Shown piece after piece: positions 12,938 through 56,739 of a DNA stretch of 64,000 bases; the first letter of the stretch is position 1, and each line of letters opens with the position of its first letter. The notes under the pieces were generated by a model. That model searched no databases. It worked only from the letters and a program-made list of their open reading frames with translations, and was not told where the DNA came from. Source of the DNA: an uncultured Acidobacteriota bacterium. GTDB lineage: Bacteria; Acidobacteriota; Thermoanaerobaculia; Multivoradales; UBA5704. Location of the stretch: assembly GCA_963757335.1 (NCBI GenBank), contig CAVWRJ010000011.1, forward strand, positions 71,700-135,699. Reading direction: 5' to 3'. The position numbers were made by a program, and so were the translations under genes.

Positions 12938-15697
12938 GTGCATGATTGCCTACAACTCAGGAGGTCTTTGCCCAAGCCGATCTTCAGGGATATATACTTC
13001 TATCCTCATTCTTTGGCGTGTGGCGAGCTTCCGGTGACAGAGCCTCGTGAAACAGAGTCAGTAGGACCCCTCACTGGTCCGCCTCCCGGCGGAAGATGGT
13101 CCCCAGGGCGGCTCGTCGCGGATCGCTACGAGGTCCGGAAGTATCTCGGACGCGGCGGCTTTGCGACTGTCTACCGCGCCTATGACCGCCTCGTGAAGAT
13201 CGAGGTGGCCCTCAAAGTCGTCCACCCGGAGCGGGACCCGGAACGAGCACTCGTCCGGCTTGCCCGGGAAGTGGAGATCGCGCGGCAGAGCCTCGACCCT
13301 CATCTCGTTCGGGTCTTTGATCTCGGGAGAACAAGCGAGGACATCTTCCTCACGATGGAGTTACTCCAGGGCGGGTCACTTCGAGAACGACTCGCCCATG
13401 GGCCGCTTCCGGTTCCTGAGGCCCTCCGTATCGCGGAGGCCGTGCTCCAGGGCCTCGCCGCGCTCCACGCGAGAGGCGCAGTGCATAGGGACGTGACCCC
13501 GGGGAACATCCTATTCTCGGAGACGGGCGAGGTGAAGCTCGCTGACTTTGGGCTTGCGAGGTATCTCGCGCGCGAGGAAACCCAGCTCACCTCCCTCGGC
13601 GCCGTCCTCGGGACCGCCGGCTATCGCTCGCCGGAGCAGGCCCTCGGGCGAGACATTGACCCACGGAGCGACCTCTATGCCCTGGGGGTCGTGCTCTTTG
13701 AGATGCTCGCGGGCCGCCTGCCGCACGAGGCGACCTCCGAGTTCGGGCGGCGACTTTCAGTCCTCGAACGGGCTCCAGATGTACGGAGCTACCGGAAGGA
13801 CGTTCCTCCGTGGGCGGCGAAGATCGTGGCCCGCCTCCTTGAGGTCCGGCCCGCCGATCGCTACCGCACCGCCGAGGAGGTTCTCGGGGACCTAAGGCGA
13901 GGCAGGAGCCCGCGGCGCGTGCGCTTCCGGCGGCGTCTTTTCCGCTCGATCGCGGTCCTCCTCTTTTGCTTGCCACAGGTCGGAGTGCTCGTCACGCGAG
14001 CGCGCCATGCTGCTTTTTCTCATCTTGTCCCCGCTGGCGAGACGGGCGTGAAGGCCGTAAGCGTCTCCGGCGAGACGCTCTGGACGGTCCCCGGAGTAAA
14101 TCCGGAGATCGTGAACCGCGGAGCGCTCGCGCGGATCACGCCCGGCGGCCCCCGCCTCCTCGCGATCGTCCTTTCCCGGGCGGGCGACTGGTCGATGACG
14201 GCCGTTTCGACGCTCTCCTTCCTCGATCCGGACTCCGGCCGGGTCGTGAAGGAGGTAAAGCTTCCGAGCGGTGCGGAGTCCTTCCCGAACGACCCGCCAC
14301 GGTTTTTCGCTTCCTCGGTGAAGGCCGTCGATCTCTTCCACGATGGCGTGGACGAGGTGGTCGTAAATTGCAGCCATGTTCCGGAGGCGCCCTTCTATGC
14401 CGTCCTCTACGCGCCTCGCTACGACCTGGCCCGGATCGTCTTCTACTCCCGCGGCGGACAGGACTTCCAGGGAGCCACGGACCTCGACGGCGACGGCGTC
14501 AAAGAACTCCTCTTTGCGGGGATCAATAACGGGTGGAACTGGGTAAACATCGTCGCGGCGGTGCGGCTCGATCCGCGCTCCTTCACGGAGGGAGACCGGA
14601 TGGCGACTCCCGCCGCGCCGGACACGGTAGCCACGCCCGCGCAGGGGCGCGCGCTCCTCTGGTACGCCGTCGTTCCGCGCGGCCAACTTGAGGAATTCTC
14701 CCGGCTCAGCGTTGACGAGAAGCGGCGGGAGCTCACGGTCCACTACCTCTCGGGGAAGACCTGGGTCTTGGGGTTCGACGGCTTCCCTCCGGATGCCGCG
14801 CACCCGGACAATACCCTGCGCCAAGCCGACCGGCGGGCGGTCTACGATCATCTCTGGGAAGCGGAGCGTCTCCGGCGGGCCGGCATGCTCGACCTCGCGA
14901 TGACCGAAGCGGAAGCCGCGCTCGCATCGGCAAAGCGTGCCCGGGAGACGTGGCTCGGAGAGTACGCCGAGCGGCTCGAAGCAAAGATCCTCACAGCCCA
15001 AGGGAAGACCATAGAGGCCGAGCGCCGCTTTACCTCGCTCGTTCTCCGCGCCGAGGACGCTCCCGAGGTGGCCTATGACGCCGGTGTCGCCTTTCACCTC
15101 CAGGGCGACCTCACCCGGGCCGTCGCCTGGTACGAACGGGGCATCGGCCGCGAGTCCGCGATTGGCGCCGGGAAGAGCAAACACGAATTCCTGAAGGGCG
15201 AAGTCTTGGCACTCGTCGAGGAGAAGCGGTACGAGGAAGCGCTCGCGGCGGTGGCGCGTTTCGGGGCTACCTATCCGTCCGCCGAGGGCCGCATGTGGCT
15301 CTTCCGCGAGTATGTCCGCTGGCGAGCGGGCGAGCGGCCAGAGGCGGACCCTGCCGGAGTGCGGCAAAACTGGACGGACCTCGATCGGTATTGGGCGCTG
15401 GAGTTCGCCTTCGCCGCGGGCGCCAAACCGGAGCCCCTCTTGAAGCAAGTGGATCTCTTCATCGCCGAGCGGCCGGAGACGCAAGCGGAGGCGCTCTCGC
15501 TCCGGGCCGAACTTCTTGCCCGCCTGGGGCGCAGGACGGAGGCCGCAGGAACGGCGCAGTCTGCGTTGGAGCTGGTGCGGGTAGAAAAGCCCAGGAGTAT
15601 CATCGCGCACGGCCATGAAGAACTCCTCGGCGAGCGAGCTCGCCGCCTCCGAATCGAGGGAACAGCTATGACGCCGCGCGGTCATTCCGCCCCCTAA
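12938..15697 (+). CDS. Hanks-type serine/threonine protein kinase with C-terminal beta-propeller/FG-GAP-like and TPR-like regions
   Basis: LGRGGFATVYRA (Gly loop), ALKVVHPE (beta3 Lys), HRDVTPGNILF (catalytic loop, note T in place of Lys), KLADFGLAR (DFG), SPEQ (APE); DLDGDGVKELLFAGINNGW FG-GAP-like; C-terminal helical repeats. Alternative in-frame GTG start at 13034. Confidence 0.85.
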   Translation: MHDCLQLRRSLPKPIFRDIYFYPHSLACGELPVTEPRETESVGPLTGPPPGGRWSPGRLVADRYEVRKYLGRGGFATVYRAYDRLVKIEVALKVVHPERDPERALVRLAREVEIARQSLDPHLVRVFDLGRTSEDIFLTMELLQGGSLRERLAHGPLPVPEALRIAEAVLQGLAALHARGAVHRDVTPGNILFSETGEVKLADFGLARYLAREETQLTSLGAVLGTAGYRSPEQALGRDIDPRSDLYALGVVLFEMLAGRLPHEATSEFGRRLSVLERAPDVRSYRKDVPPWAAKIVARLLEVRPADRYRTAEEVLGDLRRGRSPRRVRFRRRLFRSIAVLLFCLPQVGVLVTRARHAAFSHLVPAGETGVKAVSVSGETLWTVPGVNPEIVNRGALARITPGGPRLLAIVLSRAGDWSMTAVSTLSFLDPDSGRVVKEVKLPSGAESFPNDPPRFFASSVKAVDLFHDGVDEVVVNCSHVPEAPFYAVLYAPRYDLARIVFYSRGGQDFQGATDLDGDGVKELLFAGINNGWNWVNIVAAVRLDPRSFTEGDRMATPAAPDTVATPAQGRALLWYAVVPRGQLEEFSRLSVDEKRRELTVHYLSGKTWVLGFDGFPPDAAHPDNTLRQADRRAVYDHLWEAERLRRAGMLDLAMTEAEAALASAKRARETWLGEYAERLEAKILTAQGKTIEAERRFTSLVLRAEDAPEVAYDAGVAFHLQGDLTRAVAWYERGIGRESAIGAGKSKHEFLKGEVLALVEEKRYEEALAAVARFGATYPSAEGRMWLFREYVRWRAGERPEADPAGVRQNWTDLDRYWALEFAFAAGAKPEPLLKQVDLFIAERPETQAEALSLRAELLARLGRRTEAAGTAQSALELVRVEKPRSIIAHGHEELLGERARRLRIEGTAMTPRGHSAP

Positions 15698-15706: not shown

Positions 15707-16630
15707 ATGCTTCGTATTCTGATCTCTCACGGTTACGAGGAGCGGGTCTTCCCTCTTCCCGAGGGTGAAGCCTTCCTTGGGAGTGCGCCCGAAAACGATA
15801 TCGTCCTGCATGTCCGCGGCGTCTCCCGTAGCCACGCGCTTTTGCGGCGATGCCCTGAGGGAGTCGAGGTCATCGACCAGGGCTCCAAAAACAAGCTCTT
15901 TGTCGGCGCTGGTCAGGTGGAACGCGCTATCCTCACGACGGGGCTTCGGGTTCAGATCGGGACCGCTTGGCTGGAGGTCGAAGAGGTCTCCTCGTCCGAG
16001 CAAGCGCTTGCTCTCCTCGTTCAGACTTCCTCGGAAGAGACAATGCCGCGATCGCTTCGTACCGAGATGGTCGGGCCGAGGAAAGACTCGCGAGACCTTT
16101 CGCCTGCCGATGGCGCTTTGGCCCTCGCCTACCATATCGCCGAGAGAGGAGCCGGCATCCCAGGGCAGCGAAATGACCTCCTCTTGAGGATCAAGGAGGC
16201 TCTTGGAGCAGAGACTTTTGGAACCTTCGATCGGCGGCTACGCGGGGGGCTCCGCCTCTGGGAGAGCGAGGGGCAGTTTCTTCCGGAGGATGTTAGGGCC
16301 TTCGGAACGCTCGCCGCCGATATACGAGGGAGCCAAGTGGTTCTGAAGCGTGCAGAGCGCCTGCTCATCGCCGGAAGAGAATCATGGTTCCTTGGGGCAA
16401 AATTCGGAGAGGATTCTCTTGCCCATGAGGGGTGGCGGAAAGACCTCCTTCGCTTCCTCGCAAGTCAGCTCTTCAAGCCGGCGCAGAGCCTCGACGAACT
16501 CGATGCGGGGGAGGCGCAGCGCGTGCTCGCCTTAAACCGTGGGAACAAGTCGAAGACCGCAAAGCTTCTCGACCGGACTCGCGGTACGCTCGACAAGCTG
16601 CTGGCAGGCGCGAACCCGGCTAAACGCTGA
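15707..16630 (+). CDS. FHA-domain protein with C-terminal Fis-type helix-turn-helix
   Basis: N-terminal FHA pattern (LPEGEAFLGSAPENDIVLHVRGVSRSHALL...NGSKNKLFV); C-terminal AQRVLALNRGNKSKTAKLLDRTRGTLDKLL resembles HTH_8/Fis; 10 bp downstream of the kinase gene. Confidence 0.8.
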   Translation: MLRILISHGYEERVFPLPEGEAFLGSAPENDIVLHVRGVSRSHALLRRCPEGVEVIDQGSKNKLFVGAGQVERAILTTGLRVQIGTAWLEVEEVSSSEQALALLVQTSSEETMPRSLRTEMVGPRKDSRDLSPADGALALAYHIAERGAGIPGQRNDLLLRIKEALGAETFGTFDRRLRGGLRLWESEGQFLPEDVRAFGTLAADIRGSQVVLKRAERLLIAGRESWFLGAKFGEDSLAHEGWRKDLLRFLASQLFKPAQSLDELDAGEAQRVLALNRGNKSKTAKLLDRTRGTLDKLLAGANPAKR

Positions 16631-16850: not shown

Positions 16851-17795
16851 ATGCCCATAAAAGACAGAATCATATTTTTTCTTCGCAGCCCAGGAGTGAT
16901 CGTTGCGGCTGTAGTTCTGCTACTCGTATGCGCTTCAGCCAGCCTCTTCGCGCAGCAGAAGGCTCCCCCTATCGCTCCGCCATCTTCCCTTGAAACAGCA
17001 ACGTCTTCTGATGAGATTTCTCTGCTGCCTCTCATAAAGAAGGCTTCCGAAAACACTCCTTTGCCTTCTGGCGTAATGTTGAGAAGCGCGCCAGCAAGGC
17101 CCGGCGACCTTCCGCCGAGCCCCGATGAGTTCAAGATGCTGTACGGCTACCGAGGAAGGTATTACAACGTCTCGAATCTCGATGGCCAGGTCACCGTGAT
17201 CCAAGAGTCAATCTATGCCTGGCCGACATCTACCTGGAAAGCCTCCGGACTCGTGCGGAATCAAACGCACTCTGCGATTCATATCTCAAGCCTTACTGCA
17301 CGCCTCCTCGGAGCCGGCGGAACGGTACTCGCAACTACAACCGTGACCATCCCGGTCGCTGATTTGCGGCCCGGCGAACCCGGCCCCTTCATGATCGAGG
17401 CGCCTGTCGCGAGCAGTGAAGTGAAGGCAGTGGAGTGGCACATCGACTCTGTGCCGGCCCCGCCTCAGACTCGGCCGCTCATCGTGGAGCCCGACTATGG
17501 ACCAGTCAACGTTCCGAACGAACCGAAATACTGGCTAATTGGAGAACTCCGGAATCAAGCCACGACGACGCTCCGCGATGTGCGAGTTGTAGTGGCCTGG
17601 TTGGATGACGAAAAACGGGTGCGCTACGTCGCTGCGCCCGCCTTTCGCCCCTTTCTGGATCGCCCGGCGACCGTCCCCACCATCGACCTACCAGCCGGCG
17701 GATATGTATTCTTTACGTACGAGCCGCGAGAGCCTTGGCTCGTGTCACTTTTTGAAAATACCTACGACCTTGCAACCTGGGGGATATCCAATTGA
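16851..17795 (+). CDS. hypothetical secreted protein
   Basis: AAGGAGA RBS 7 nt before ATG at 16851; signal-peptide-like MPIKDRIIFFLRSPGVIVAAVVLLLVCASASLFAQ; stop overlaps the start of the giant gene (ATGA); ORF-track frame opens at 16809. Confidence 0.6.
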   Translation: MPIKDRIIFFLRSPGVIVAAVVLLLVCASASLFAQQKAPPIAPPSSLETATSSDEISLLPLIKKASENTPLPSGVMLRSAPARPGDLPPSPDEFKMLYGYRGRYYNVSNLDGQVTVIQESIYAWPTSTWKASGLVRNQTHSAIHISSLTARLLGAGGTVLATTTVTIPVADLRPGEPGPFMIEAPVASSEVKAVEWHIDSVPAPPQTRPLIVEPDYGPVNVPNEPKYWLIGELRNQATTTLRDVRVVVAWLDDEKRVRYVAAPAFRPFLDRPATVPTIDLPAGGYVFFTYEPREPWLVSLFENTYDLATWGISN

Positions 17796-20700
17796 GAGCA
17801 AAGCGAATTCCTCCTTTGGTACTCATTCTTCTTATCGCCCAAGAGACTGGCGCCATGGCGCAAAAATTTGGTCACCTTCCTTTTGTGGACGCTATCGAGA
17901 GTGCTGCCATGAAGAACGGCAGCCGCGACCACTGCACACTCACCCCTCGCAAGCTGATGGCATACCTGCTCGCGCCCACTTGGTCGGAAGTAGCCAACAG
18001 TGACCGCACTTTAACCCCCTCGCCAATGGCACTGGGCAGAGGCGACAAAGATCTTCATTTCTTCATGGCGGGTCAAGATCAAATTGGCGCGCCCTACCAC
18101 CGCGCCTTTTGGCATCCCGGAATCGGCCTCTGGCAGCTGGATGATGGGGGGTTTGCGATGGGTCTCGGTGTGGAGAGATTCCACGCCGTGAACGCTGCGG
18201 ATAGCGCCGCCAAAATGATTGCGGATCTCTATTGCAACTGTACCGACCCAGACTCAGCACAGTGCGCCGCGATCATTTTTGGGCCGAGCACATGGGTCAG
18301 TTGTGGCAGCGATGGCAGTATCTGCTGGCAGACCTTCCAGGCTATCTATAACCCGAACGGCCCACCTCTGATCGCTGATGACTACTCCACTGATAGCCTG
18401 GGTGGCTCGGAGTACCATGTCTGCACCATCGCCGGGGCCCCAGAGAGATTTCACTGCCTTTATGTGGATACGACGCGGGTCGAGGGATATTCTCATTGGA
18501 CAACTTTCCCTGATCCGGGTGGACTATGGCCATTAGCTCAACCGTTCTATGTATATAACTATCCGCCGCTTGGCGCTGCGACATCTGAGATCCGATACTG
18601 GATGGCCGTGGACGGACCCATTGAAACCGGCCCCTTTCCCACGGACATCAGCGCAATGCGAACGTTAGGCATTAATTCGCGAGATGGTCTTATTTGGAAG
18701 CTACCTTCGGCGCCCAACGGCGACGGCCTCTGTGATCTAACTCGTCCCCATGGGGACGCATGTCTTGGCCAATATCGATCAAATGGAACGACGCCGATCG
18801 TGGTTGGCAGCGAAACGGATGAGAGTGCAGTCAAATTTCGTGCACTCATGAGCGATCCGAACGGGCAGTCAAGCAGATTAGAGATCGAACTCCGGCAGCT
18901 TAAGGAGAATAGCGGAGCCTTCAGCGATTCGCCAACGCAGACAAGCCCCATGGTCACCGCAGGTAACGTTGCCGAGGCGACGGCGAACGGCCTTATCAAA
19001 GGCTATTACCACTGGCAGGCAAGGACAGTAAACGCTACGGGGCAGAAGAGTCCATGGCAGTCGTTTGGTGGCAATCCTGACGGTGTAACGGATTTCACTG
19101 TCGGGCATGGCGGTACGCTTCAGGTCAGGGCAACCGTAGACGGCTCTCCTTATTCAGGCTTCGTTTCATATTCGGTATCAGGTCCCACATCCTTCGTCGG
19201 TACGAGCGCGGATATTTACCGCAATCTTCCTGAGGGCAACTACACGGTTCTTTATCTCTCCGGTGGCCCAGCCAATACCAATTACCACAATATTACTCCC
19301 GGCCCGAGTCAGTACGTCTCCGCAGGAAGTCCAATTTCGTGGACTCTTGCGCTCACGACAGATCAAGGGCAGTTCTGCTCGGCAAACTCCGGCGCCGACG
19401 CGCAATCAGCTTTATACACGACTTGTGGCGGCAGGCTATCCGTAATCCTTGCCGGCACCGGCAGCGGGCGCATACTGAGCAGTCCCGTCGGCATTGACTG
19501 CCCCGGAAGCTGCTCGACAAGCTTTCCGACAGCGTCGCAGGTGACCCTTTCTCCAAGTCCCTCACCGGGATCAACATTCAGCGGTTGGACGGGCGATTCG
19601 GACTGCTTCGATGGCGTGGTCACGATAAATGGCGATCGGACATGTACCGCGACATTCACGGCCACTGCTACCGCGTATCCGCTCTCCATTGCAACCTCCG
19701 GCTCGGGCACGGTAAGCAGCATCGACGGGGGCATCAACTGCGGCGCGACCTGCACTCACACCTACGTCTCTGACACTCCGGTAACGCTCACCGCATCAGC
19801 GGCTTCAGGCTGGTCATTTTCCAGCTGGTCAGGGAACTGCTCCGGAGGGCCGTCGATCCAGGTCACGATGACGAGTAGCCGCAACTGTACGGCGACCTTC
19901 GTGCAGACCGCAGGTACCACTCCCGAAACGACGACGGGGATGGCGCCGAATCCCGGCGCGACGAGCGCAACGCTGAATGGCACGGTGAATCCTCATGGGC
20001 TCGCTACCACTGCCTTCTTCGAGTACGGCCCCGACCCATTCCTTGGCTATGCGACTCCCGGAGTGGGCTTTGGCAACGGCAACTCCCCCCTGTCGTTTAG
20101 CCAACCCGTCACGGGACTCGCATGCGCGACGACCTACCGTTTCCGCACCGTGGGAGTAAGCGCCGCTGGCGAATATCGTTCGAGCAACAACACCTTTCAG
20201 ACGGCGGCCTGTCCCCCTGCCCCCTGTAACGTCCTGACGCTCACCCAAAACGGCGACGGCGCGGTGCCGGTAGCTACGCCAGCGCAGTCTTCGGGCTGTC
20301 CTTTCAGCCAGTACCATGCGGGCGAGCACATCACCCTCACGGCCTCCGCCGGAGACGGCAACATCGTGACCGGCTGGGGCGGGACGGATAACAACGCGAG
20401 CACGGCGACCGTGAACACGATGACCATGCCTGCCTCTAACTGGACGGCGTTCGCCTCTTATGGGCATATCTGCTACCACCTGAGCCTTGGATATACCGGA
20501 CAGGGCGCGGCACCCGTCGCGACGAATCCCGTGGCATCGTGTCCCGCTGACTACTTCCCCTGGGGCTACGAAGTGCGTGTGGAGTCAAGTCCCGCAACAG
20601 GATGGAGGATCGGGGGCTGGAGCGGAACGAGCAACGATGCGACCATGAGTCCCTTCAATTTTATCGTGATGCCGATCGGGAATACCACAGCGCTTGTGCA

Positions 20701-22726
20701 ATACATCCCGCTTCAATATCTGGTGCAAATTTCCAAAGGTGGGAATGGCGAAGGAACTGTCGCGAGCGACCTGCCGGGCATCAACTGCGGCCCGACATGC
20801 ACCGCCTCTTATCCCTACGGCACGACGGTGACCTTCACGGCGACCGCAGCTACGGGATCGAGTTTCGGAGGTTGGAGCGATCAGTGCGCGGGGGGCGTGG
20901 TGACGATTGATGGCGTCGGTACGAGTAAGAACTGCACGGCAACATTCGTCACCGATCCTCTTCAGGAGTGGGCGGTTGAACGCGCGGGAGGGAAGACCCT
21001 CCTTGGTGTCTATTTCTTGGACGAGAACGAAGGATGGGCGGTCGGCGGAGGGGGCACCATCCTCCATACCACGAACGGCGGTACCACATGGGAGCAGCAA
21101 ATAAGTCCTTCGCCTTATTATCAATACAATGCAGTTTACTTCGCCGATCACGGCATGGGCTGGGCTGCCGGGCTTGGTGGGGGCGATGGTAACGGCGGGG
21201 TGATCGTCCACACGACAGACGGTGGCGCCACGTGGTCGGTTCAGTACGATGGCGGCAGCAGTACGAGCAGCAGAATCTGGTGGCTTGCCGGAGTCGATCA
21301 GAATCGGCTCTGGGCGGCAGCGAGCTCCGGCTTGCTCTGGAGCACCGATGGTGGGATGAACTGGCAGCTAAGACCTATGAGCCCACTCTGGCGAGTCAGA
21401 TTTGCCGATGTCTCGAAAGGATGGGCTACCACCCAGAGCGGTGAGATCCTGAAGTCAGGGGACGGCGGGGCGACGTGGGAAACTGCCTATACCCCTCCGA
21501 ATGGAGGAGTCGTTATCGATCTGGGACTTGCCGGATCAAAGGTGTGGGGAGTTGGCTCTCTTTCCAATTTAAAAATCGTGGATACGCTCGACGGTGTGCA
21601 GTGGCAAGAGCAGTCAAGCGGGACGACGGACATTCTCCGCAGCAGCAGTTTTCTTGATGCCTGCACCGGCTGGGCTGTCGGCGGTGGGGGCACAATCCTG
21701 AAGACGCTAGATGGGGGAACGAACTGGACGGGGAGCATTCTCTCTTCATCCTTGTACGACGTATTCTTTACCCGTCGCGGAGGATGGGCAGTCGGACAGG
21801 GTGGGGTCATCCTCAAGTACATGAAGCCTATATCCCCTGGTCCTTCGCTTGCCTTCAGAAACAACCAGTTTGGTAGTTCCGGCGGCGATGGAACCATCGA
21901 TGTCACAACGCCTGCCGGGTGTGGCTGGGGTGTAGTGAGCGAGAACCCTGATTTCATTACGATCACTTCCGGAACTACAGGAGTAGGCAATGCCCGCGTC
22001 ACCTACCACGTAGCGCCGAATAGTGGGCTCCCCCGGCATGGGACTATCGATGTGGCTGGGGTGAAATTCTCGATAGAACAGGCAGGTGCTTCGTGCAATG
22101 CAGTCCTCAGTCCAATGACACAGTCGTTCGGTATCACCGGCGGCACGGGTACGTTTTCGATTTCGACTCAATCTGGATGCTCCTGGACTGCGGCGACAGA
22201 CGCTCAGTGGATAGTCGTCACTCAGAGTTCGGGCACAGGGAGCGGTACCATGTCGTTCACCCTCCAGGGTAATCCAGATTCCAGACCTCGAAGCGCGACA
22301 ATAGGCGTAAATGGATCGGTGTTTACGGTGTATCAGGCCGGTCCCGCGGTGGCGGGTGAAGCACTGAAGTTCTTTACCATAACTCCTTGTCGCGTGTACG
22401 ACACGCGGCCGGTTTCGCAGCTGGTCTCGGGCGCAAAGCGATATGTCCAGGTCACGGGGATCTGTGGAGTTCCTTCAACCGCGAAAGCGATATCAGCGAA
22501 CGTATCCATAACAGGTCCGACGGGTGGCGGATACCTTACGATCTGGCCATCCGATCTTGGAACACCGGGAACGAGCATCATCAACTTCTCCGGAGGCCAG
22601 ACCCGGACGAATAACGCGATCCTGCCCTTGGCTACCGATGGAGTCGGAGATTTGGCAGGACTCGCAAGCGTGCTGAACTCAGGCAATGTCCACCTAATCC
22701 TCGATGTCAATGGCTATTTCCAGTAG
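17792..22726 (+). CDS. giant secreted multidomain protein (1644 aa)
   Basis: Signal peptide MRAKRIPPLVLILLIAQETGAMA, then a lysozyme-like N-terminal region, InlB-B-like repeats (GTV.S.P.GI.CG..C...Y..GT.VTLTA.P..GS.F.GWSG.C), BNR/Ycf48-like repeats (GGGGTILHTTNGGTTWE) and BACON-like domains (WIVVTQSSGTGSGTMSFTLQGN); C-terminal ~125-aa domain shared with the protein at 46744-51558; GC lower than surroundings. Confidence 0.85.
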   Translation: MRAKRIPPLVLILLIAQETGAMAQKFGHLPFVDAIESAAMKNGSRDHCTLTPRKLMAYLLAPTWSEVANSDRTLTPSPMALGRGDKDLHFFMAGQDQIGAPYHRAFWHPGIGLWQLDDGGFAMGLGVERFHAVNAADSAAKMIADLYCNCTDPDSAQCAAIIFGPSTWVSCGSDGSICWQTFQAIYNPNGPPLIADDYSTDSLGGSEYHVCTIAGAPERFHCLYVDTTRVEGYSHWTTFPDPGGLWPLAQPFYVYNYPPLGAATSEIRYWMAVDGPIETGPFPTDISAMRTLGINSRDGLIWKLPSAPNGDGLCDLTRPHGDACLGQYRSNGTTPIVVGSETDESAVKFRALMSDPNGQSSRLEIELRQLKENSGAFSDSPTQTSPMVTAGNVAEATANGLIKGYYHWQARTVNATGQKSPWQSFGGNPDGVTDFTVGHGGTLQVRATVDGSPYSGFVSYSVSGPTSFVGTSADIYRNLPEGNYTVLYLSGGPANTNYHNITPGPSQYVSAGSPISWTLALTTDQGQFCSANSGADAQSALYTTCGGRLSVILAGTGSGRILSSPVGIDCPGSCSTSFPTASQVTLSPSPSPGSTFSGWTGDSDCFDGVVTINGDRTCTATFTATATAYPLSIATSGSGTVSSIDGGINCGATCTHTYVSDTPVTLTASAASGWSFSSWSGNCSGGPSIQVTMTSSRNCTATFVQTAGTTPETTTGMAPNPGATSATLNGTVNPHGLATTAFFEYGPDPFLGYATPGVGFGNGNSPLSFSQPVTGLACATTYRFRTVGVSAAGEYRSSNNTFQTAACPPAPCNVLTLTQNGDGAVPVATPAQSSGCPFSQYHAGEHITLTASAGDGNIVTGWGGTDNNASTATVNTMTMPASNWTAFASYGHICYHLSLGYTGQGAAPVATNPVASCPADYFPWGYEVRVESSPATGWRIGGWSGTSNDATMSPFNFIVMPIGNTTALVQYIPLQYLVQISKGGNGEGTVASDLPGINCGPTCTASYPYGTTVTFTATAATGSSFGGWSDQCAGGVVTIDGVGTSKNCTATFVTDPLQEWAVERAGGKTLLGVYFLDENEGWAVGGGGTILHTTNGGTTWEQQISPSPYYQYNAVYFADHGMGWAAGLGGGDGNGGVIVHTTDGGATWSVQYDGGSSTSSRIWWLAGVDQNRLWAAASSGLLWSTDGGMNWQLRPMSPLWRVRFADVSKGWATTQSGEILKSGDGGATWETAYTPPNGGVVIDLGLAGSKVWGVGSLSNLKIVDTLDGVQWQEQSSGTTDILRSSSFLDACTGWAVGGGGTILKTLDGGTNWTGSILSSSLYDVFFTRRGGWAVGQGGVILKYMKPISPGPSLAFRNNQFGSSGGDGTIDVTTPAGCGWGVVSENPDFITITSGTTGVGNARVTYHVAPNSGLPRHGTIDVAGVKFSIEQAGASCNAVLSPMTQSFGITGGTGTFSISTQSGCSWTAATDAQWIVVTQSSGTGSGTMSFTLQGNPDSRPRSATIGVNGSVFTVYQAGPAVAGEALKFFTITPCRVYDTRPVSQLVSGAKRYVQVTGICGVPSTAKAISANVSITGPTGGGYLTIWPSDLGTPGTSIINFSGGQTRTNNAILPLATDGVGDLAGLASVLNSGNVHLILDVNGYFQ

Positions 22727-22822
22727 CTGCTCGACGAGGTGACGCCGGTCGGCGGGCGCGTCGCTTGATTCGGTCAAATACGTGGTGGATGTAAACCTCC
22801 GAACGACGATGTGGAGATATTC

Positions 22823-23491
22823 ATGCCCAAACTTCCTGAAGTCGAAGGCCACTGGCACTCTTTGATCGAGGGCTTCGCGACCTCCTCCCTCGACTTCTAT
22901 ACCCTCGTCCAGGCGAATCTCGCCCGCCGCGAGATCCCCGATCTCCTCATCTATTCAGTGAAGTGGAAAGAGAGCGGCGTGGCCTCCGGGAAGCGCATCT
23001 ACCTCCGCATAAGCCGCGAGCACTTGAACTTCGACATCTGCGCCGCGCCCTTCGGCACCGGATTCTTCTTCTCCTGGTGGCTCGCGCGAATTCGGCGGAT
23101 CTTCCTTGACTTCCTCTGCCTGCTCCTTGGCCTTCTCTGCGGAGGCTTCATCGGATACGTCATCGTAAATGAAAGCCCGAATAGCACGGGACATGGCGCA
23201 GCCTTCGGCTCCCTCATCTTCTTCGGCACGCTCTTCGGCATTGGCCTCATCGTGCGCCATGCGAACCTCGGGCTCGAACCTACGGTCATCTCCATGCCCG
23301 TCACGGGTTTCCTCTACCGGTTCGTCTTCCGGCCGACGACGTACTTCAATGAGGATACCGCCCTCATGTTCCGGGAAGCGGTCCACAAGGCGGTGGTCGA
23401 GGCGATCGATACGGTGACCTCGGCGCAGGGGGTTCGCGGCCTCTCCGAGGAGGCGCGGAGGGTCACCTTCACTCCGGGCAAAGGGACGTGA
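22823..23491 (+). CDS. hypothetical membrane protein (2-3 TM)
   Basis: Hydrophobic segments FFFSWWLARIRRIFLDFLCLLLGLLCGGFIGYVIV and AAFGSLIFFGTLFGIGLIV; immediately upstream of the HerA-like fusion gene; ORF-track frame opens at 22811. Confidence 0.5.
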   Translation: MPKLPEVEGHWHSLIEGFATSSLDFYTLVQANLARREIPDLLIYSVKWKESGVASGKRIYLRISREHLNFDICAAPFGTGFFFSWWLARIRRIFLDFLCLLLGLLCGGFIGYVIVNESPNSTGHGAAFGSLIFFGTLFGIGLIVRHANLGLEPTVISMPVTGFLYRFVFRPTTYFNEDTALMFREAVHKAVVEAIDTVTSAQGVRGLSEEARRVTFTPGKGT

Positions 23492-23508
23492 CTGTGGGCT
23501 CGTAGGAG

Positions 23509-26496
23509 ATGGGTCAACCTACCCTCCCCAAGCGCCTGACTGAGCAGTTCTACGCCTTCGAACTCCGGGGCCGGGGCTACGAGGAGTTCCCCTATCCGGT
23601 AGAACTCGAACCGCCCTTCCGGCCCTTCCCCGGATACTCGCTTCCCCGCGTCGAGGACGACGGCCACCGGCCGACCATCCTCAGCCGTCTCTTCAGGCCT
23701 TCCCGCCGGAGGGTTGAAGCGCCCGAGACCCAAGAGCCAGAGCCCACGCCCTTCGAGGTCGAGGAGCCGATCACCGAGTGCGTGGTCTCCCTCCCCGAGG
23801 ACAAGGTGGTCTCCCGGGAACTCGCAGAGCGCTTCCTGCTTTCGGTCGCGGGCGCGGAGCTGCCGCTCGCCTTCGAGATCCTGGGACTCCCCGAGCGCCT
23901 TGAAGCACGGATCGCTTCCCGGGCGCCGGACACCTCCCTTCTCGCGAACGAACTCCGCGCCTTCTTCCCCGAGGTCTCGATCGGAGAAGAAGACGGCGGG
24001 CTCCGGAGCGCGTGGACAAGGGGTAAGGGCGAGACCGTCTGCCTCCACTTCGGCCTGGCCCGCGAGTTCATGCTGCCGCTCGTCTCCTTCCGCTCCCTCG
24101 ATCCCGATCCCCTTCTCCCGCTCCTTGGGGCACTCTCCGAGCTCGATCCCGGGGAGGCGGGCCTCGTCCAGGTCCTCTTCGAGCGGGTCAGGGAGCCGTG
24201 GGCCGAGAGCGTCATGCGGGCGGTCGTGACCGGGAAGGGCGAGCCCTTCTTCGCCGACTTCCCGGAACTCACAAAGCTCGCCAAGGAGAAGATTGCGAGC
24301 CCCCTCTATGCCGTCTGCCTGCGACTTGCGGCGAAGAGCAGAACCCTCGCCGGGGCCTGGCGCATCCTTCGCGATCTCGCGGGGAGCTTGACCCACTTCG
24401 GGAACCCCGTGGGAAACGAACTTCTCCCCTTGGCCTCCGAGGAGGGCGAGGAAGCCGCTACGGAGATCTTCCGCCGCACGAGCCGCCGCCCGGGGATGCT
24501 CCTCGGGCTCGACGAACTCACGGGGCTCGTCCATCTCCCGAGCGCCTCGGTAAAGATCCCGAAGCTCGTCCGCGAGGTGCGGCGGACAAAAGCAGCGCCG
24601 ATGCTCGCGGGAGGCATCCTCCTCGGGGAGAACTTGCATCACGGAAGGACCGTCCCTGTCCGACTGCCCGAGGAGCTTCGCCTCCGGCACCTGCATGTCG
24701 TCGGGGGCTCCGGGACCGGCAAGTCCACCCTCCTCCTCGACCTTATCTCGCAGGACATCGAAGCCGGCCGGGGCGTCGCCGTCCTCGATCCGCATGGCGA
24801 TCTTGTGGACGAGGTTCTCGGCCGCATCCCCGAACAGCGACTCGCGGACGTGATCCTCTTCGACCCGGCGGATACAGAGCACCCCCTCGCCTGGAACATC
24901 CTCGAAGCCCACTCCGAACTCGAACGCACCCTCCTCGCCTCGGATCTCGTGGGGCTCTTCCGCCGCTTCTCGACCTCCTGGGGCGATCAGATGACCTCGG
25001 TCCTCGGGAATGCCGTCCTCGCCCTCCTCGACTGCCCTGGTTCCACCCTCCTTGACCTCCGCGAGTTCCTCGTAGACCGCGCGTCCCGGGAGAAGCTCCT
25101 CAAGGCCGTAGAGGACCCGTACCTGCTCTCATACTTCCGGCAGGAGTTCTCTCTTGCAGCCGGGAAGAGCGTGGGGGCGATCCTCACGAGGCTCGACGGC
25201 TTCCTCCGGAGCCGGACGGTACGCGCGATCGTGGGCGCGCGCGAAAGCCGGCTCGACCTTCGGGCAGTCATGGACCGGGGGCAGATCTTCCTCGCGCGGC
25301 TCTCAGAGGGGGCGATCGGGGAGGAGAACGCCGCACTCCTCGGGAGCCTCCTCGTCTCGAAGTTCCACCAGGTAGCCATGAGCCGCCAAGAGATCCGGCG
25401 GGAGGAGCGGCGGCCCTTCTTCCTCTACGCCGACGAGTGCCAGGAGGTCGCGACCCCCTCCATGGCTCTCCTCCTTTCGGGTGGCCGGAAGTATGGCCTC
25501 GGCCTCACCCTCGCGCACCAGGATCTCCGCCAGCTCGATACCAAAGCTCCCGAAGTCGCCTCGGCGCTTATGGCGAACGCGGGGACAGGCGTTGTCTTCC
25601 GGGTCGGTGAGCGGGACGCGAAGGCGCTCGCCGAGGGCCTCTCCTACTTCGGCGCCGCCGATCTCCTGGGGCTGCGGGTCGGTGAGGCCGTGGCCCGGAT
25701 CGAAAACGCACGGGGCGATTGCAACCTCCGAACGCGGCTTCTGTCTCCTGTTCCCTCAGACATCGCCCTCCATCGCCGGGAGGCGGTCACTCTGCACTCG
25801 CGGGAGCGCTACGCCACCCGGGTCGAGGCGGTGGAAGCGCGGAGGAGAGAGGAGATACCGCCTCGCCCGGAGACAAAGGACGTGCCGGAAGTCACCGCGC
25901 CTGCCCGGGAGCCGGAAGAGCGCTCCACGACGCCGCTGCCGCCGAAGCGGGCAGCGCGGTCCCCAGTTCCCCCTCCACCCCTCGGTCGGGGCGGGCCGGA
26001 GCATCAGTACCTTCAGGAACTCGTGAAGCGCTGGGGAGAGTCCCATGGCTACCGCGCCGTGATCGAAGAAGAGATCCCGGACGGCAAGGGCAGCGTCGAT
26101 GTGTCTCTTCGGAGCGACGATTTTTCGATCGCGTGCGAGATCTCCGTCACCTCGACCGTGGCACAGGAGGTTGGGAACGCAAAGAAGTGCCTCGAAGCCG
26201 GTTTTGATGAGGTCGCGATCCTCGCCCTCGCGCGTCCGCGCCTCGCAAAAATCGAGGCGGCTCTCAAGGCAAAGCTCACAGCTGCCGACCTCGCCCGCGT
26301 GCATGTGGTCTCCTCGGAAGAACTCTTCTCCCTGCTCTCCATGAGGCCCGTGACTACGGAGACCGTGGTCGGTGGATACAAGGTGAAAGTGCGCAGGAAG
26401 ACCGTTGAGACGAGTGAAGAGGCCATCCGCTACCGCGCCCTCACCGAGGTCATCGCAAAGAGCGTGCGCCGCCTGGAGGGCAAGGAAAAGCCATAG
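23509..26496 (+). CDS. HerA/FtsK-superfamily (TraD-like) ATPase fused to ~370-aa N-terminal unknown domain and C-terminal PD-(D/E)xK-like tail
   Basis: HLHVVGGSGTGKSTLL (Walker A), LDPHGDL, FFLYADECQ (Walker B), GLGLTLAHQDLRQL and GVVFRVGERDAKAL match the ATPase at 4844-6124; C-terminal GSVDVSL...IACEISVTS...NAKK is reminiscent of restriction-endonuclease-fold residues. Confidence 0.7.
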   Translation: MGQPTLPKRLTEQFYAFELRGRGYEEFPYPVELEPPFRPFPGYSLPRVEDDGHRPTILSRLFRPSRRRVEAPETQEPEPTPFEVEEPITECVVSLPEDKVVSRELAERFLLSVAGAELPLAFEILGLPERLEARIASRAPDTSLLANELRAFFPEVSIGEEDGGLRSAWTRGKGETVCLHFGLAREFMLPLVSFRSLDPDPLLPLLGALSELDPGEAGLVQVLFERVREPWAESVMRAVVTGKGEPFFADFPELTKLAKEKIASPLYAVCLRLAAKSRTLAGAWRILRDLAGSLTHFGNPVGNELLPLASEEGEEAATEIFRRTSRRPGMLLGLDELTGLVHLPSASVKIPKLVREVRRTKAAPMLAGGILLGENLHHGRTVPVRLPEELRLRHLHVVGGSGTGKSTLLLDLISQDIEAGRGVAVLDPHGDLVDEVLGRIPEQRLADVILFDPADTEHPLAWNILEAHSELERTLLASDLVGLFRRFSTSWGDQMTSVLGNAVLALLDCPGSTLLDLREFLVDRASREKLLKAVEDPYLLSYFRQEFSLAAGKSVGAILTRLDGFLRSRTVRAIVGARESRLDLRAVMDRGQIFLARLSEGAIGEENAALLGSLLVSKFHQVAMSRQEIRREERRPFFLYADECQEVATPSMALLLSGGRKYGLGLTLAHQDLRQLDTKAPEVASALMANAGTGVVFRVGERDAKALAEGLSYFGAADLLGLRVGEAVARIENARGDCNLRTRLLSPVPSDIALHRREAVTLHSRERYATRVEAVEARRREEIPPRPETKDVPEVTAPAREPEERSTTPLPPKRAARSPVPPPPLGRGGPEHQYLQELVKRWGESHGYRAVIEEEIPDGKGSVDVSLRSDDFSIACEISVTSTVAQEVGNAKKCLEAGFDEVAILALARPRLAKIEAALKAKLTAADLARVHVVSSEELFSLLSMRPVTTETVVGGYKVKVRRKTVETSEEAIRYRALTEVIAKSVRRLEGKEKP

Positions 26497-26600
26497 TGGC
26501 AAAGGGTGCGGATTCTGCCGCCTTCCCTCCTGCGGCCGCAGTGTCCATCATGGTCGAAGTCCCTTTAGAACTCCACCCTCAAGCACCCAAAGGAGGAAAC

Positions 26601-28355
26601 CCTATGGACCGCGCCAAAGACTCGGAGGCGAAGCCCGTCGGCATCTGGATTCGGGTTTCGACCGAAGACCAGGCCAGGGGCGAGAGTCCCAAGTACCACG
26701 AGATGCGCGCAGAGAGCTACGCCGAGTCCCGGAGATGGAAGGTGATTGAGGTCTATCACCTCGAAGGCGTGTCGGGGAAGTCGGTTATGGAGCACCCCGA
26801 GACGAAGCGGATGATGGCCGACGTGCGCAAGGAGCGCATCGCGGGCCTCATCTTTTCGAAGCTCGCCCGGCTCGCGCGGAACACGAAGGAACTCCTGGAG
26901 TTCGCCGAGTACTTCCGCGAGCACGGGGCGGATCTCGTCTCCCTTCAGGAGTCGATTGATACCTCAACCCCTCACGGTCGCCTCTTCTACACCATGATCG
27001 CTGCGATGGCCGAGTGGGAGCGCGAGGAGATCGCCTCCCGGGTGGCGGCATCGATCCCCATCCGGGCAAAGCTCGGGAAGCCGATCGGCGCCCCGCCCCT
27101 CGGGTACCGCTGGCACGAGAAGCGGATGGAGATCAATCCAGACGAGGCCCCGATCCGGCGTCTCATCTACGAACTCTTCAAGGAGCACGGACGCCTCAAA
27201 ACCGTCGCCGAACTCCTGACTGCCGCCGGCTATCGCGGCCGTAAGGGCAAGCCCTTCCGGGACATGACCGTGGAGCAGATCCTCACCGACCCCTCCGCCA
27301 AGGGCCTCCGCCGCGCGAACTATACGAAGCTCGTCAAAGGGAAGAGAGTCCTGAAGCCAGAATCGGAATGGGTCTTCGTGCCGTGCCCCTCGATCGTCTC
27401 CGAGGAACTCTGGGAGGAGTGCAACGCGCTCCTTCTGCGGCGGAAGGCGTCCCACAAGCCCGTCGCGAAGCGGGCGGTCTATGTCTTCGCGGGATTCGTA
27501 TACTGCGCCTGCGGGGAGAAGATGTACGTACGCTCGAACACCCCGAAGTACGTCTGCATGGCCTGCCGGACGAAGATCCCAATCGTAGACCTCGACCAGA
27601 TCTTCCAGAACCAACTAGAGGAGTGCACTCTCAGCCCGGATGCCATCGCGGCCTACCTGACCCAAGGGAACGAGGTCAGGACCCAGAAGGAGGAACTCTT
27701 GGCCACACTTTTTCGCGAGCGGGATCGACTCATCAAGGAAGCCGACAAGCTCTACCGTCTCTACCAGGAAGATGGCCTCACGGTCGACGGGTTCCGCAAC
27801 CGCCACCGACCCCTCGAAGCTCGCCTCGCGGGGTTGGGCACCGAGATCCCCCGCCTCCAGGGCGAGATCGACTTCCTCAAAGTCCGCACGGTCATGGAAG
27901 GCGAGATCGTCGGCCGCACCCGGGGCCTCGCCCTTGAGTGGCTCCGGATGGACCTCCCAGAGAAGCGGGCCGTCGTCGAGAGCCTCGTCGAGCGGATCAC
28001 GATCGAGAAGGACACCGTGACGATCGACCTCATGGCCCTCCCGCCTCTCTCGGAGATCATGGCAAAAGGGCCACCCAGGGAGAGAGTTGCTTGGCGCTGT
28101 CGACCCGCAGGAGCAGGTGATAGTGGTTGGACAGGAAGGCGAAGGCAAAATTTTCATCTCAAAGAGACGTTGAGCCCGGCCGAGAGTACCGACGACGATC
28201 TCGTTAAGCGCCGGGCTGGGGCAAAGAAGAAGGCGGCTTTGGACGGTGCGGGTCGAGACTTCGACCAGGGTCTGGGATTCGGGGATGAAGCGGAGAGGTC
28301 GGCTCATGGAAGGGAGAGACGTAAAAAGTCCTCCCATCTTGCAAACTTCCTTTAA
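26601..28355 (+). CDS. large serine recombinase (resolvase/invertase N-terminal domain, recombinase domain, zinc ribbon)
   Basis: VGIWIRVSTEDQ catalytic-Ser motif, IAGLIFSKLARLARN, zinc ribbon CACGEKMY...CMAC, coiled-coil region. ORF frame opens at 26496 (overlapping the upstream stop); likely start MDRAKD at 26601. C-terminal end uncertain because the tail enters the repeat-rich region. Confidence 0.8.
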   Translation, partial: PMDRAKDSEAKPVGIWIRVSTEDQARGESPKYHEMRAESYAESRRWKVIEVYHLEGVSGKSVMEHPETKRMMADVRKERIAGLIFSKLARLARNTKELLEFAEYFREHGADLVSLQESIDTSTPHGRLFYTMIAAMAEWEREEIASRVAASIPIRAKLGKPIGAPPLGYRWHEKRMEINPDEAPIRRLIYELFKEHGRLKTVAELLTAAGYRGRKGKPFRDMTVEQILTDPSAKGLRRANYTKLVKGKRVLKPESEWVFVPCPSIVSEELWEECNALLLRRKASHKPVAKRAVYVFAGFVYCACGEKMYVRSNTPKYVCMACRTKIPIVDLDQIFQNQLEECTLSPDAIAAYLTQGNEVRTQKEELLATLFRERDRLIKEADKLYRLYQEDGLTVDGFRNRHRPLEARLAGLGTEIPRLQGEIDFLKVRTVMEGEIVGRTRGLALEWLRMDLPEKRAVVESLVERITIEKDTVTIDLMALPPLSEIMAKGPPRERVAWRCRPAGAGDSGWTGRRRQNFHLKETLSPAESTDDDLVKRRAGAKKKAALDGAGRDFDQGLGFGDEAERSAHGRERRKKSSHLANFL

Positions 28356-46694: not shown

Positions 46695-46743
46695 TGCCCG
46701 TCGCCCCGAGCGTGAAAGGTCCGGTCTGCTCAGGCGGCACGTC

Positions 46744-49700
46744 CTAGAGCTTGAAGGAGTAGGTGCCAACGAAGTCGTTACTGGGGCTCCCCACGGTCAG
46801 GCTATAGGTGCCGCCCTTGGTGAGGGTGATGTTCCCGACGTCCCCTTCGAACGGAGCGCTGAAAACCTGCTGACCGCTGTCGTCGGTCAACGTCCAGCTG
46901 ATCCGGAAGGTGCCGCCGGCCAGGTAGTCGAAGTAGACCGTCTGCCCCGCAGCCGCGGTGAACGTGTAGACGTCCATCGTCCCCGGAGTCTCGATCCGCC
47001 CTGCCCCCGCGACCGGCACCCCGTCCGCGACCGTGTCGCCGATCGAGATCGCGAAGGTCTGCGGCGGCGGCACGTCCCAGAGCTTGAAGGAGTAGGTGCC
47101 AGAGAAGTCGTTACCGGGGCTCCCCACGGTCAGGCTATAGGTGCCGCCCTTGGTGAGGGTGATGTTCCCGACGTCGCCTTCGAACGGAGCGCTGAAGACC
47201 TGATGTCCGCTGTCGTCGGTCAAGATCCAGCTGATACGGAAGGTGCCGCCGGCCAGGTAGTCGAAGTAGACCGTCTGCCCCGGGGCGGCGGTGAACGTGT
47301 AGACGTCCATCGTCCCCGGAGTCTCGATCCGCCCCGCCCCCGCGGCCGGCACCCCGTCCGCGACCGTGTCGCCGATCGAGATCGCGAAGGTCTGCGGCGG
47401 CGGCACGTTCCAGAGCTTGAAGGAGTAGGTGCCCGTGAAGGCATTGTTAGGGCTCCCCACGATCAGGGTATAGGTGCCGCCCTTGGCGAGGGTGATGTTG
47501 CCGACATCGCCTTCGAACGGAGCGCTGAAGACCTGCTGCCCGGTATCGTCGGTCAATATCCAGGCGATCCGGAAGGTGCCGCCGGCCAGGTACTCGAAAT
47601 AGACCGTCTGCCCCGCGGCGGCGCTGAAGGTATAGGCGTCCATCGTCCCCGGAGTCTCGATCCGCCCCGCGCCCGCAGCCGGCATCCCGTCCGCGACCGT
47701 GTCGCCGATCGAGATGGCGAAGGTCCGCGGCGGCGGCACGTCCCAGAGCTTGAAGGAGTAGGTGCCCGTGAAGGCATTGTTAGGGCTCCCCACGGTCAGG
47801 GTATAGGTGCCGCCCTTGGCGAGGGTGAAATTCCCGACGTCGCCTTCGAACGGAGCGCTGAAGACCTGCTGCCCGGTATCGTCGGTCAATGTCCAGGCGA
47901 TCCGGAAGGTGCCGCCGGCCAGGTACTGGAAGTAGACCGTCTGCCCCGCGGCGGCGCTGAAGGTATAGGCGTCCATCGTCCCCGGAGTCTCGATCCGCCC
48001 CGCCCCCGCAGCCGGCATCCCGTCCGCGACGGTGTCGCCGATCGAGATGGCGAAGGTCCGCGGCGGCGGCACGTCCCAGAGCTTGAAGGAGTAGGTGCCC
48101 GTGAAGGCGTTGTTGGGGCTCCCCACGGTCAGGGTATAGGTGCCGCCCTTGGCGAGGGTGAAATTCCCGACGTCGCCTTCGAACGGAGCGCTGAAGACCT
48201 GCTGCCCGGTATCGTCGGTCAATGTCCAGGCGATCCGGAAGGTGCCGCCGGCCAGGTACTGGAAGTAGACCGTCTGCCCCGCGGCGGCGGTGAAGGTATA
48301 GGCGTCCATCGTCCCCGGAGTCTCGATCCGCCCCGCCCCCGCGGCCGGCACCCCGTCCGCGACGGTGTCGCCGATCGCGATCGCGAAGGTCTGCGGCGGC
48401 GGCACGTCCCAGAGCTTGAAGGAGTAGGTGCCGACGAAGCCGCTGCTGGAGCTCCCTACGGTCAGGGTATAGGTGCCGCCCTTCCTGAGGGTGATGTTGC
48501 CGACGTCGCCTTCGAACGGAGCGCTGAAGACCTGCTGCCCGCTGTCGTCGGTCAACGTCCAGGCGATCCGGAAGGTGCCGCCGGCCAGGTACTGGAAGTA
48601 GACCGTCTGCCCCGCGGCGGCGGTGAACGAATAGCGATCGATTTCCCCGGCGACGGCGATCGCGGCGTCGATCTCCTGGCCGATCGCGATGTTGCGGCCC
48701 AGGGGATCGGTCCCCTGGGCGACCTCGGTGCCGTCGTTCACCCCGTCGCCGTCGGTGTCGGGGTTGTGCGGGTCGGTACCCAGGATCGTCTCGGCCACGT
48801 CCGGCAGGCCGTCGCCGTCGCTGTCGAGCGGATCGGGATCGCCCAGGTGAGCCTTCGGCAGCTCCATGCTCGTGCCGTTCGCTCCGGCGAGGAAGTAGGT
48901 AGTCGCGACCTGGAGCGGCTGCGTCTGGAGGTACGAAACCCGGTAGAACGTGGTCGGCTGGAGGACCATGGTGTCGAAAACTCCGGTCCCCCCCAGCCGG
49001 CCGCGCTGCACGGTGGTGCCGTTGACCGGCGCGAGCGCGTAGTAGAAACGGGTGGGGGCGGGCATCAGAGCGGTCAGGTCGCCGATGAACTGGGGCCCCT
49101 TGATATAGCCGTCCCAGGCGCTCTGCCAACCGCGGCGCGCCAGCTCGGCGCTGGTGTCGGACAGGTTCTGACCGGCGGTCACGATGGCGTCGTAGTCGGC
49201 CTGCGGCAGCTGGCTCGCGGCGATCTGGTTCATCCGATCGACCAGGGCGGAGACGTCGGCCGACGTGAGCGTCGCCGGCAGGGGCACGGCGAGGAGGGTT
49301 GCCCGCTCGGCCGTGGTGATCTGGCGGCCCCCGGGGCTCGCGGGTGCGAGAGCCTGCCCGAGGGCAGCGACGAACGGATCGAGCTCGGGGGTCATGGCCT
49401 TCCGCCACTTCGGCGAGCCGTTGACGGTGTCGAACAGCGTGGCGAGCGCGGCATTGAGAGCGTCCTGCTCCGAGAACGGATCGGCGGCGACCGTCGCCTG
49501 CACCCGTGGCTGGAGGCGCTCGCGGACCCGGTGGATGCCGGAGCAGGACTGGTCGACGCAGCTCTGGAAGGTATTGATGGGTCCGGCGACGTCCATGGCG
49601 CAGTCCACGGCATCCATCACGCTGGTGATCGCGATCCCCAACGGGCCGGAGAGGGGGACGCATCCCAGGCCGGAACTGCCGACATTCCAAGCGATCGAGC

Positions 49701-56485: not shown

Positions 56486-56739
56486 GGTGATCCTCCCTCT
56501 TGAGTCATCTCAGGCCGAGGCCGCCTCGGCAGCGTCCAAGCTCCGTCAGCCGTCGATCAGGCCCGGAGCCTTCGACTCTATTGTATCGTAATTCAGGCGG
56601 AAGTCCGCGCTCCGCGAATGCCCTCGCCTGTCGGGTGCCGCCGCGTCCTAGAGGGCGACGAGGATATCGACCTCGCTCGGGATCCGTAACATCGCCACCT
56701 CTACGGCGTAGGCAAGGGAGACGTTACCGAGGAGACCCC

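Follow-up and report, generated by a model that had tools for sequence, protein, structure and literature searches.

A widespread unnamed domain at the ends of secreted bacterial proteins, with a one-or-multiple-of-three copy rule and a predicted jelly-roll fold

Introduction

In the C1q and TNF families (PF00386, PF00229), jelly-roll beta-sandwich domains are packed into compact trimers, and the binding sites are located on the assembled head. The tip of Bd2133, a 'mosaic adhesive trimer' (MAT) fibre of Bdellovibrio bacteriovorus (PDB 8OK3 / 8OND), is carried on a trimeric beta-helix fibre. SLH and CWB2 are cell-wall-anchoring modules of Gram-positive surface proteins, in which three tandem copies form a pseudo-three-fold unit that is found at either terminus of many unrelated exoproteins per genome, and proteins with a single SLH copy assemble as trimers. 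Carbohydrate-binding modules (CBMs), among them the beta-sandwich families CBM6, CBM35, and CBM36, act as monomers and follow no multiple-of-three rule. These systems are the closest described counterparts of a domain shared by two giant secreted proteins, here called protein 1 and protein 2, which are encoded in 64,000 nucleotides (64 kb) of DNA from an uncultured Acidobacteriota bacterium of the class Thermoanaerobaculia (assembly GCA_963757335.1, contig CAVWRJ010000011.1, positions 71,700 to 135,699 of the forward strand); this whole stretch is referred to as the window. The domain is likened to the C1q and TNF heads by architecture, and it shows the same pattern of triplication, terminal placement, and diversity of partner domains as SLH and CWB2. 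However, SLH is helical and CWB2 alpha/beta, so that their folds are unrelated to that of the domain, with which they share no sequence similarity, and envelope binding by the domain is suggested by analogy. Unlike CBMs, the domain does show a multiple-of-three rule. The most fitting description is that of a new, very large family without a name, which belongs to the known kind of trimeric jelly-roll terminal heads and has a tandem-triplet form of its own.

Two copies of the domain in the window

The two genes, their putative signal peptides (read by eye from the translations), and the two domain copies are located as follows:

17792-22726, plus strand: gene of protein 1 (1644 amino acids (aa), TTG start)
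17792-17860, plus strand: probable Sec signal peptide of protein 1 (LRAKRIPPLVLILLIAQETGAMA)
22340-22723, plus strand: domain copy 1, residues 1517-1644 of protein 1, C-terminal
22388-22390 and 22463-22465, plus strand: Cys codons of copy 1
46744-51558, minus strand: gene of protein 2 (1604 aa)
51481-51558, minus strand: putative Sec signal peptide of protein 2 (MAGRRWAVVFALAFLHWMGLADWAKA)
51088-51480, minus strand: domain copy 2, residues 27-157 of protein 2, directly after the signal peptide
51445-51447 and 51352-51354, minus strand: Cys codons of copy 2

When both segments are compared by BLASTP, the final 128 residues of protein 1 are aligned with residues 24-154 of protein 2, 59 of 131 positions are identical (45%, E 1e-36), and in a BLAST comparison of the full-length proteins the shared domain is the sole significant match, the remaining segments reaching E >= 1.8. 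These results bear out a preliminary description of the window, which had proposed a domain of ~125 aa common to both giant secreted proteins, placed at opposite termini of otherwise unrelated carriers and containing two Cys residues, and its positions and reading frames were found to be as given. Copy 1 ends in ...LDVNGYFQ, flush with the stop codon (22724-22726), and its envelope in a profile hidden Markov model (HMM) search spans residues 1518-1644 (E 2e-53); the corresponding envelope of copy 2 spans residues 22-155 (E 2e-56). Both copies contain the TRTNNAILPLA block together with the two Cys residues.

No third copy of the domain was found in the 64-kb window by tblastn and five profile HMMs. 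A weak tblastn match at 57169-57363 (E 0.09) was dismissed as a chance match; it sits in an open reading frame (ORF) of 576 aa (56500-58230, plus strand) that is unrelated to the domain. This ORF resembles a secreted alpha/beta-hydrolase with a GVSYG nucleophile-elbow-like motif, and it includes a long Arg/Pro-rich stretch upstream of its likely true start.

A very large family outside the named libraries

As the preliminary description had advised, a profile was built and searched against databases. This exhaustive search of 1.84 billion representatives, with a profile seeded from the window's family, revealed a very large family of at least 36,197 representative clusters, the number obtained at E <= 1e-3, with 26,528 at 1e-10 and 12,555 at 1e-30. 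Its sources include Acidobacteriota (Thermoanaerobaculia, Holophagales, and others), Actinomycetota (Streptomyces, Kitasatospora, Pedococcus, Curtobacterium, and Arthrobacter), and Chloroflexota (including Limnocylindrales). A profile derived from actinobacterial sequences only (A4) matches both window copies at E ~1e-27, and position-specific profiles obtained from proteins with triplicated domains match both at E 1e-31 to 1e-37. A word-indexed homologue search returned only 12 close relatives, all of which carry the domain at the very C-terminus.

The preliminary description could not assign the domain to a known family, and the searches agree with it. Neither window copy matches any family of Pfam-A or NCBIfam at E <= 10, and no model of these two libraries covers the domain region in 52 triplicated or in 70 single-copy relatives. 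The Pfam profiles of C1q and TNF do not match the domain, PHROGs contains no significant match to it, and a search of the PDB sequences with three family profiles gave nothing significant; two PDB sequence matches at E ~1, to a polyketide synthase-nonribosomal peptide synthetase (PKS-NRPS) and to an acid phosphatase, were set aside as noise. The newness of the family thus refers to Pfam, NCBIfam, PHROGs, and the PDB sequences, and an obscure entry elsewhere in InterPro, or a profile-profile match, may conceivably exist. In the literature searched, no published description of this domain was found, the only relevant paper being that on Bd2133 (PMC10769870).

Existing annotation is equally silent on the domain. 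Its close relatives are called 'hypothetical protein' or are named for another domain (PGAP, JGI), and neither a look-up of clusters nor a further homologue search gave source names other than 'hypothetical protein'. In PGAP, carriers on actinobacterial plasmids are termed 'hypothetical', 'PKD domain-containing', 'LamG-like', 'cutinase family', or 'RHS repeat-associated core', names that always derive from other domains. A role as phage receptor-binding domain was also considered and dropped, as tblastn against 50,697 phage records gave no match and IMG/VR contained no relative.

The family consensus reads ...F.P.TPCR..DTR...G.....R.F.....CG[IV]P..A.A...N.T.......G[YF]L...P......S..N...G....[AT]N[NA]A[IV].......G..........D[IV]NGYF, and its motifs are PCRxxDTR, [AT]N[NA]A[IV], and DxNGYF, in this order. 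The preliminary description had regarded RTNNAILPLA as invariant. This is true of both window copies but not of the family, whose general central motif is [AT]N[NA]A[IV], with RTNNAILPLA as the variant used in the subfamily of the window. As for the two Cys residues, 433 copies contain both, 55 contain neither, and 5 are discordant; this co-occurrence fits a disulfide, which is probably formed by the Cys pair in the acidobacterial lineage. An N-x-T tripeptide (e.g., in SLNVTVV) is kept at ~90% across the family, and the window copies deviate from it (NVS/NLA); it may be structural or a site of modification.

Copy number and position

Among the 150 best matches, ranked by summed score and hence favouring multi-copy proteins, three tandem copies are found in 129 proteins, six in 15, and nine in one. 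The five remaining proteins have 4, 5 or 8 copies, and none has 2 or 7; in several of these exceptions, a gap about one copy long lies between copies, which is consistent with a missed copy. The ranking bias cannot yield a restriction to multiples of three. Moreover, the positions within a triplet are not interchangeable, since each is distinct in sequence: when the closest relative of each copy was sought in other proteins, it was located at the same triplet position for 401 of 486 copies. The triplet blocks either extend to the very C-terminus or come shortly after the signal peptide (the domain directly follows the signal peptide in 10 of the 150 best matches), and internal double triplets also occur.

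A second sample consisted of 80 loci from metagenome-assembled genomes (MAGs) of Thermoanaerobaculia, Holophagales, and other Acidobacteriota. All 103 domain-bearing ORFs in these loci contain exactly one copy, which is flush with the stop codon in ~85% of them. The domain directly follows the signal peptide in the relatives of protein 2 encoded at loci L037, L049, and L053, as well as in a different protein at L047. Two or more domain-bearing ORFs are located within ~6 kb of each other in 16 of the 80 loci, and runs of three or four genes that lie side by side and all end in one copy are found at L066 (1-5185), L054 (783-5465), L052 (130-3203), and L041 (2-6379). Such runs could be the result of tandem duplication or could encode co-assembling partners. 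An all-against-all BLAST of the flanking ORFs was dominated by spurious alternative-frame ORFs from the high-GC DNA and yielded nothing on conserved neighbouring genes.

The preference for the C-terminus, with the conserved ...LDVNGYFQ end, and the presence in one genome of numerous paralogues whose partner domains are unrelated are features that would also be expected of a terminal sorting or secretion signal, comparable to the C-terminal domain of the type IX secretion system (T9SS), which would be recognized by dedicated machinery and possibly cleaved. Such a signal is nevertheless difficult to reconcile with domains that follow the signal peptide, as in protein 2 and its orthologues, the L047 protein, and the 10 best matches mentioned above, or with internal double triplets, stand-alone domains, and carriers in monoderm Actinomycetota. 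In addition, no T9SS-type or other sorting-domain model of NCBIfam or Pfam matches the domain, and both window proteins appear to have ordinary Sec signal peptides. A sorting signal is therefore considered very improbable.

Predicted fold and structural likenesses

Structure prediction, another step advised in the preliminary description, was performed with AlphaFold for a single domain and for a triplet. The model of copy 1 alone, based on 14 sequences, is an eight-strand beta-sandwich with a predicted local distance difference test (pLDDT) score of 75.6, whereas the triplet model P0056, based on 45 sequences, reaches a pLDDT of 94.5 and a predicted template modelling (pTM) score of 0.91. Since this pTM value applies to three domains, their mutual placement is confident, and the triplet is modelled as a compact body instead of beads on a string. 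The domain is predicted to be a jelly-roll beta-sandwich of ~125 residues, and the arrangement of the triplet suggests pseudo-three-fold symmetry. When compared with engineered single-chain trimers, the triplet model aligns over 191 residues with the C1q head 5hzf, 191 with Cbln1 (5kca), and 178 with APRIL-BAFF (4zch), in each case over more than one domain. In a library of viral structures, a phage 'C1q domain-containing protein' ranks first, but with a template modelling (TM) score of only ~0.2, a generic jelly-roll likeness.

The structurally closest solved domain is the Bd2133 fibre tip, on which the predicted model superposes with the same fold. The identity between both is 9-14%, and the three family profiles gave no PDB sequence match; sequence homology with Bd2133 was thus not detected. 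According to the Bd2133 paper, the tip itself had no PDB homologue at that time (PMC10769870). The settings also differ, because the Bd2133 tip crowns a trimeric beta-helix fibre, whereas the domain described here is attached to non-fibrous multidomain proteins, at either terminus, and also occurs as one-chain triplets and as stand-alone proteins. No beta-helix fibre was identified by Pfam in the window proteins, which are composed of InlB B-repeat, BNR/Ycf48-like, BACON, Big_5, TSP3, and PPC-like domains.

These structural data also bear on the idea of a monomeric, CBM-like beta-sandwich module, similar to CBM6, CBM35, or CBM36, in which each copy would bind sugar, tandem copies would add avidity, and the window copies would be monomeric. 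The fold class and some of the enzyme partners (see below) are in line with it. However, avidity does not explain why copy numbers are 1, 3, 6, and 9, nor are the positional identity within triplets and the high pTM of the triplet explained by independent sugar-binding units. Furthermore, the structure most similar to the domain is that of a trimeric fibre tip and not of a CBM, and no CBM family in Pfam matches the domain, nor was any sequence or profile match to CBM6, CBM35, or CBM36 found. A CBM-like module is thus regarded as unlikely.

Partner proteins and stand-alone forms

The preliminary description had suggested a look at domain-shuffled occurrences, and these are diverse: proteases, oxidases, a xylanase, a cutinase, RHS toxins, Ig-like proteins, and propellers all carry the domain. 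In 70 complete single-copy ORFs, the partners include TIG (12), reprolysin-like M12B metallopeptidases (8), FG-GAP (4), PKD (4), glyoxal/galactose oxidase (2), trypsin-like peptidases (2), and several propellers. In 45 triplicated proteins, they comprise PKD, InlB B-repeat, DUF11, BACON, GH10, Vgb lyase, RCC1, and glucose/sorbosone dehydrogenase (GSDH). On Curtobacterium plasmids, one triplet is located near the N-terminus of an RHS polymorphic-toxin protein, whose gene adjoins a MobF relaxase gene, and another near the N-terminus of a 1069-aa 'cutinase family' protein, whose gene adjoins conjugation genes; a function of the triplet as a targeting module for the RHS toxin is possible. These plasmid carriers are found at:

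L082:5476-10065 (NZ_CP126276.1)
L083:2692-5901 (NZ_CP126253.1)

There are also small secreted proteins that consist of a signal peptide and the domain only, which indicates that the domain can exist without an attached protein. Their existence, as well as the nature of the partners, is relevant to a further explanation, namely that the domain is an oligomerization or folding nucleus, which would trimerize and register the attached protein as do the tips and chaperone domains of trimeric fibres, with no ligand of its own. The resemblance to the Bd2133 tip, which takes the place of the S74 chaperone domain of other MAT fibres (PMC10769870), would suit such a nucleus, and so would the placement of the domain at the extreme terminus of very long multidomain proteins. 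Nevertheless, the one-chain triplets present in most of the relatives seen cannot oligomerize anything, the partners (Ig-like domains, propellers, and globular enzymes) fold as monomers and not as fibrous trimers, and the stand-alone secreted forms have nothing to oligomerize. A folding nucleus without its own ligand is, in our opinion, quite unlikely.

Proposed function

The multiple-of-three rule, the positional identity of the copies, the compact triplet model, and the trimeric nature of the nearest structure together argue for a three-fold functional unit, and the family likely operates as a three-fold assembly. A more complete proposal, which we judge about as likely to hold as to fail, is that the domain forms a homotrimeric head, or a pseudo-trimeric one if triplicated, for multivalent binding or anchoring, whose ligand would probably be a glycan or an envelope polymer. 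According to this proposal, three tandem copies in one chain would pack as a compact pseudo-trimer, while single-copy proteins such as those of Thermoanaerobaculia would assemble as homotrimers through the domain, by analogy with the Bd2133 tip and the C1q/TNF heads. The domain would serve to tether or target the protein attached to it and, when present as a single copy, also to trimerize this protein. In the case of the window proteins, Sec export would be followed by folding of the domain with its disulfide, homotrimerization through the domain, and finally tethering or targeting of the trimer. As three copies in one chain form an assembly that cannot oligomerize the rest of the protein, the head must act itself. 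Moreover, the extreme-end placement on very different secreted proteins, in both monoderm and diderm bacteria, makes a binding or anchoring head the most economical reading.

Several points weigh against this proposal. Homotrimerization of single-copy proteins is suggested by analogy and by the copy-number rule, and both ligand binding and the identity of a putative ligand are likewise proposed from analogous heads; for the closest of these, the Bd2133 tip, the available text of the paper identifies no ligand (PMC10769870). The list of the 150 best matches, given its ranking, does not allow the ratio of single-copy to triplicated proteins to be read. The single-domain model of copy 1 is of moderate confidence. 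Lastly, the 55 Cys-less copies stem from only 11 proteins and, thus, the co-occurrence of the Cys residues reflects few independent events.

A variant of the three-fold assembly is that single-copy domains are parts of a split trimer, in which paralogues and stand-alone proteins would co-assemble as heterotrimers and display different enzymes or adhesins on one hub. Six stand-alone proteins, designated type II, form a subtype with the signature AGEPA[IL]ANGAIVPL...LDVTGYF:

L020:3370-3927, stand-alone protein
L024:1246-1737, stand-alone protein
L045:478-1062, stand-alone protein
L079:1248-1769, stand-alone protein
L052:2751-3203, stand-alone protein
L057:5294-5797, stand-alone protein

Their genes lie downstream of a gene for a large protein ending in the window's subtype, within ~160 bp in five of the six cases and at ~1.9 kb in L057. 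In L020, L024, L057, and L079, the upstream genes show full-length homology to one another, so that at least four MAGs share the conserved gene pair. For the copies of large proteins (type I), the position-1 profile gives the highest score in 67 of 71 cases, both window copies among them, while for the six type II proteins the highest score always comes from position 2 or 3 and never from position 1; however, the score differences are small (5-12 bits) and so is the sample, which weakens the idea. The positional identity within triplets, these profile preferences, the conserved gene pair, and the runs of adjacent domain-bearing genes would all fit split trimers, but no type II gene was found by profile HMMs in the 64 kb of the window. 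The split trimer is an improbable, speculative extension. If true, it would constitute a jelly-roll-trimer docking system that mixes different proteins on one three-fold hub.

The carrier proteins and their genomic neighbourhood

The putative signal peptide of protein 1, LRAKRIPPLVLILLIAQETGAMA, shows a basic n-region, a hydrophobic core, and an AMA cleavage motif. From its N-terminus, protein 1 is composed of an unassigned region of ~330 aa, InlB B-repeat-like domains, a Ycf48/BNR-like propeller, and two BACON domains, all three assigned by Pfam, and the shared domain. The first 353 aa (~17792-18850) have no Pfam match even at E <= 1; this N-terminal region includes the stretch WHPGIGLWQLDDGGF, which may resemble lytic-transglycosylase motifs. 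Upstream of the gene, a Ser/Thr kinase with TPR (12938-15697) and an FHA/HTH_8 protein (15707-16630) are encoded, both on the plus strand, and the end of a 328-aa ORF overlaps the start of protein 1 by 4 bp. Downstream (22811-28355, plus strand), there are a 226-aa ORF, a VirD4/TraG-like coupling protein (23509-26496), and a large serine recombinase (26496-28355). The two ORFs that adjoin protein 1 (328 and 226 aa) have no match in Pfam. Protein 1 is thus surrounded by regulatory and mobile-element-like genes, and it may lie at the edge of an integrative element.

In protein 2, the signal peptide and the shared domain are followed by Big_5/carboxypeptidase-regulatory-like domains, an unassigned Cys-rich region, TSP3 repeats, and about six PPC-like repeats of 111 aa. 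The window stems from a close relative of the Acidobacteriota MAG BP_61, whose orthologue of protein 2 (L053) shows 88% identity over 1153 aa. The PPC-like repeats at the C-terminus are encoded by a 333-bp tandem repeat (46733-48634, minus strand) with 5.7 copies and 94% identity. The near-identity of these repeats suggests recent expansion or ongoing homogenization, and it also implies a risk of assembly collapse in this gene.

Conclusions

The domain occurs in tens of thousands of clusters from at least three phyla, and it has no model, name, or structure in the libraries searched. As there is no family model, the ends of many large surface proteins in soil Acidobacteriota and in Actinomycetota, including Streptomyces, are annotated as 'hypothetical', and a curated family model would improve the annotation of many genomes. 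While the mechanism proposed here is not surprising, the annotation gap is large. The one-or-multiple-of-three rule provides a testable idea of the domain as a trimeric head. Binding of this head to a polymer of the envelope or the environment, if it occurs, would account for the way in which these poorly studied bacteria display proteases, oxidases, glycosidases, and toxins on surfaces, and the domain would also represent a new modular tag for trimeric display.

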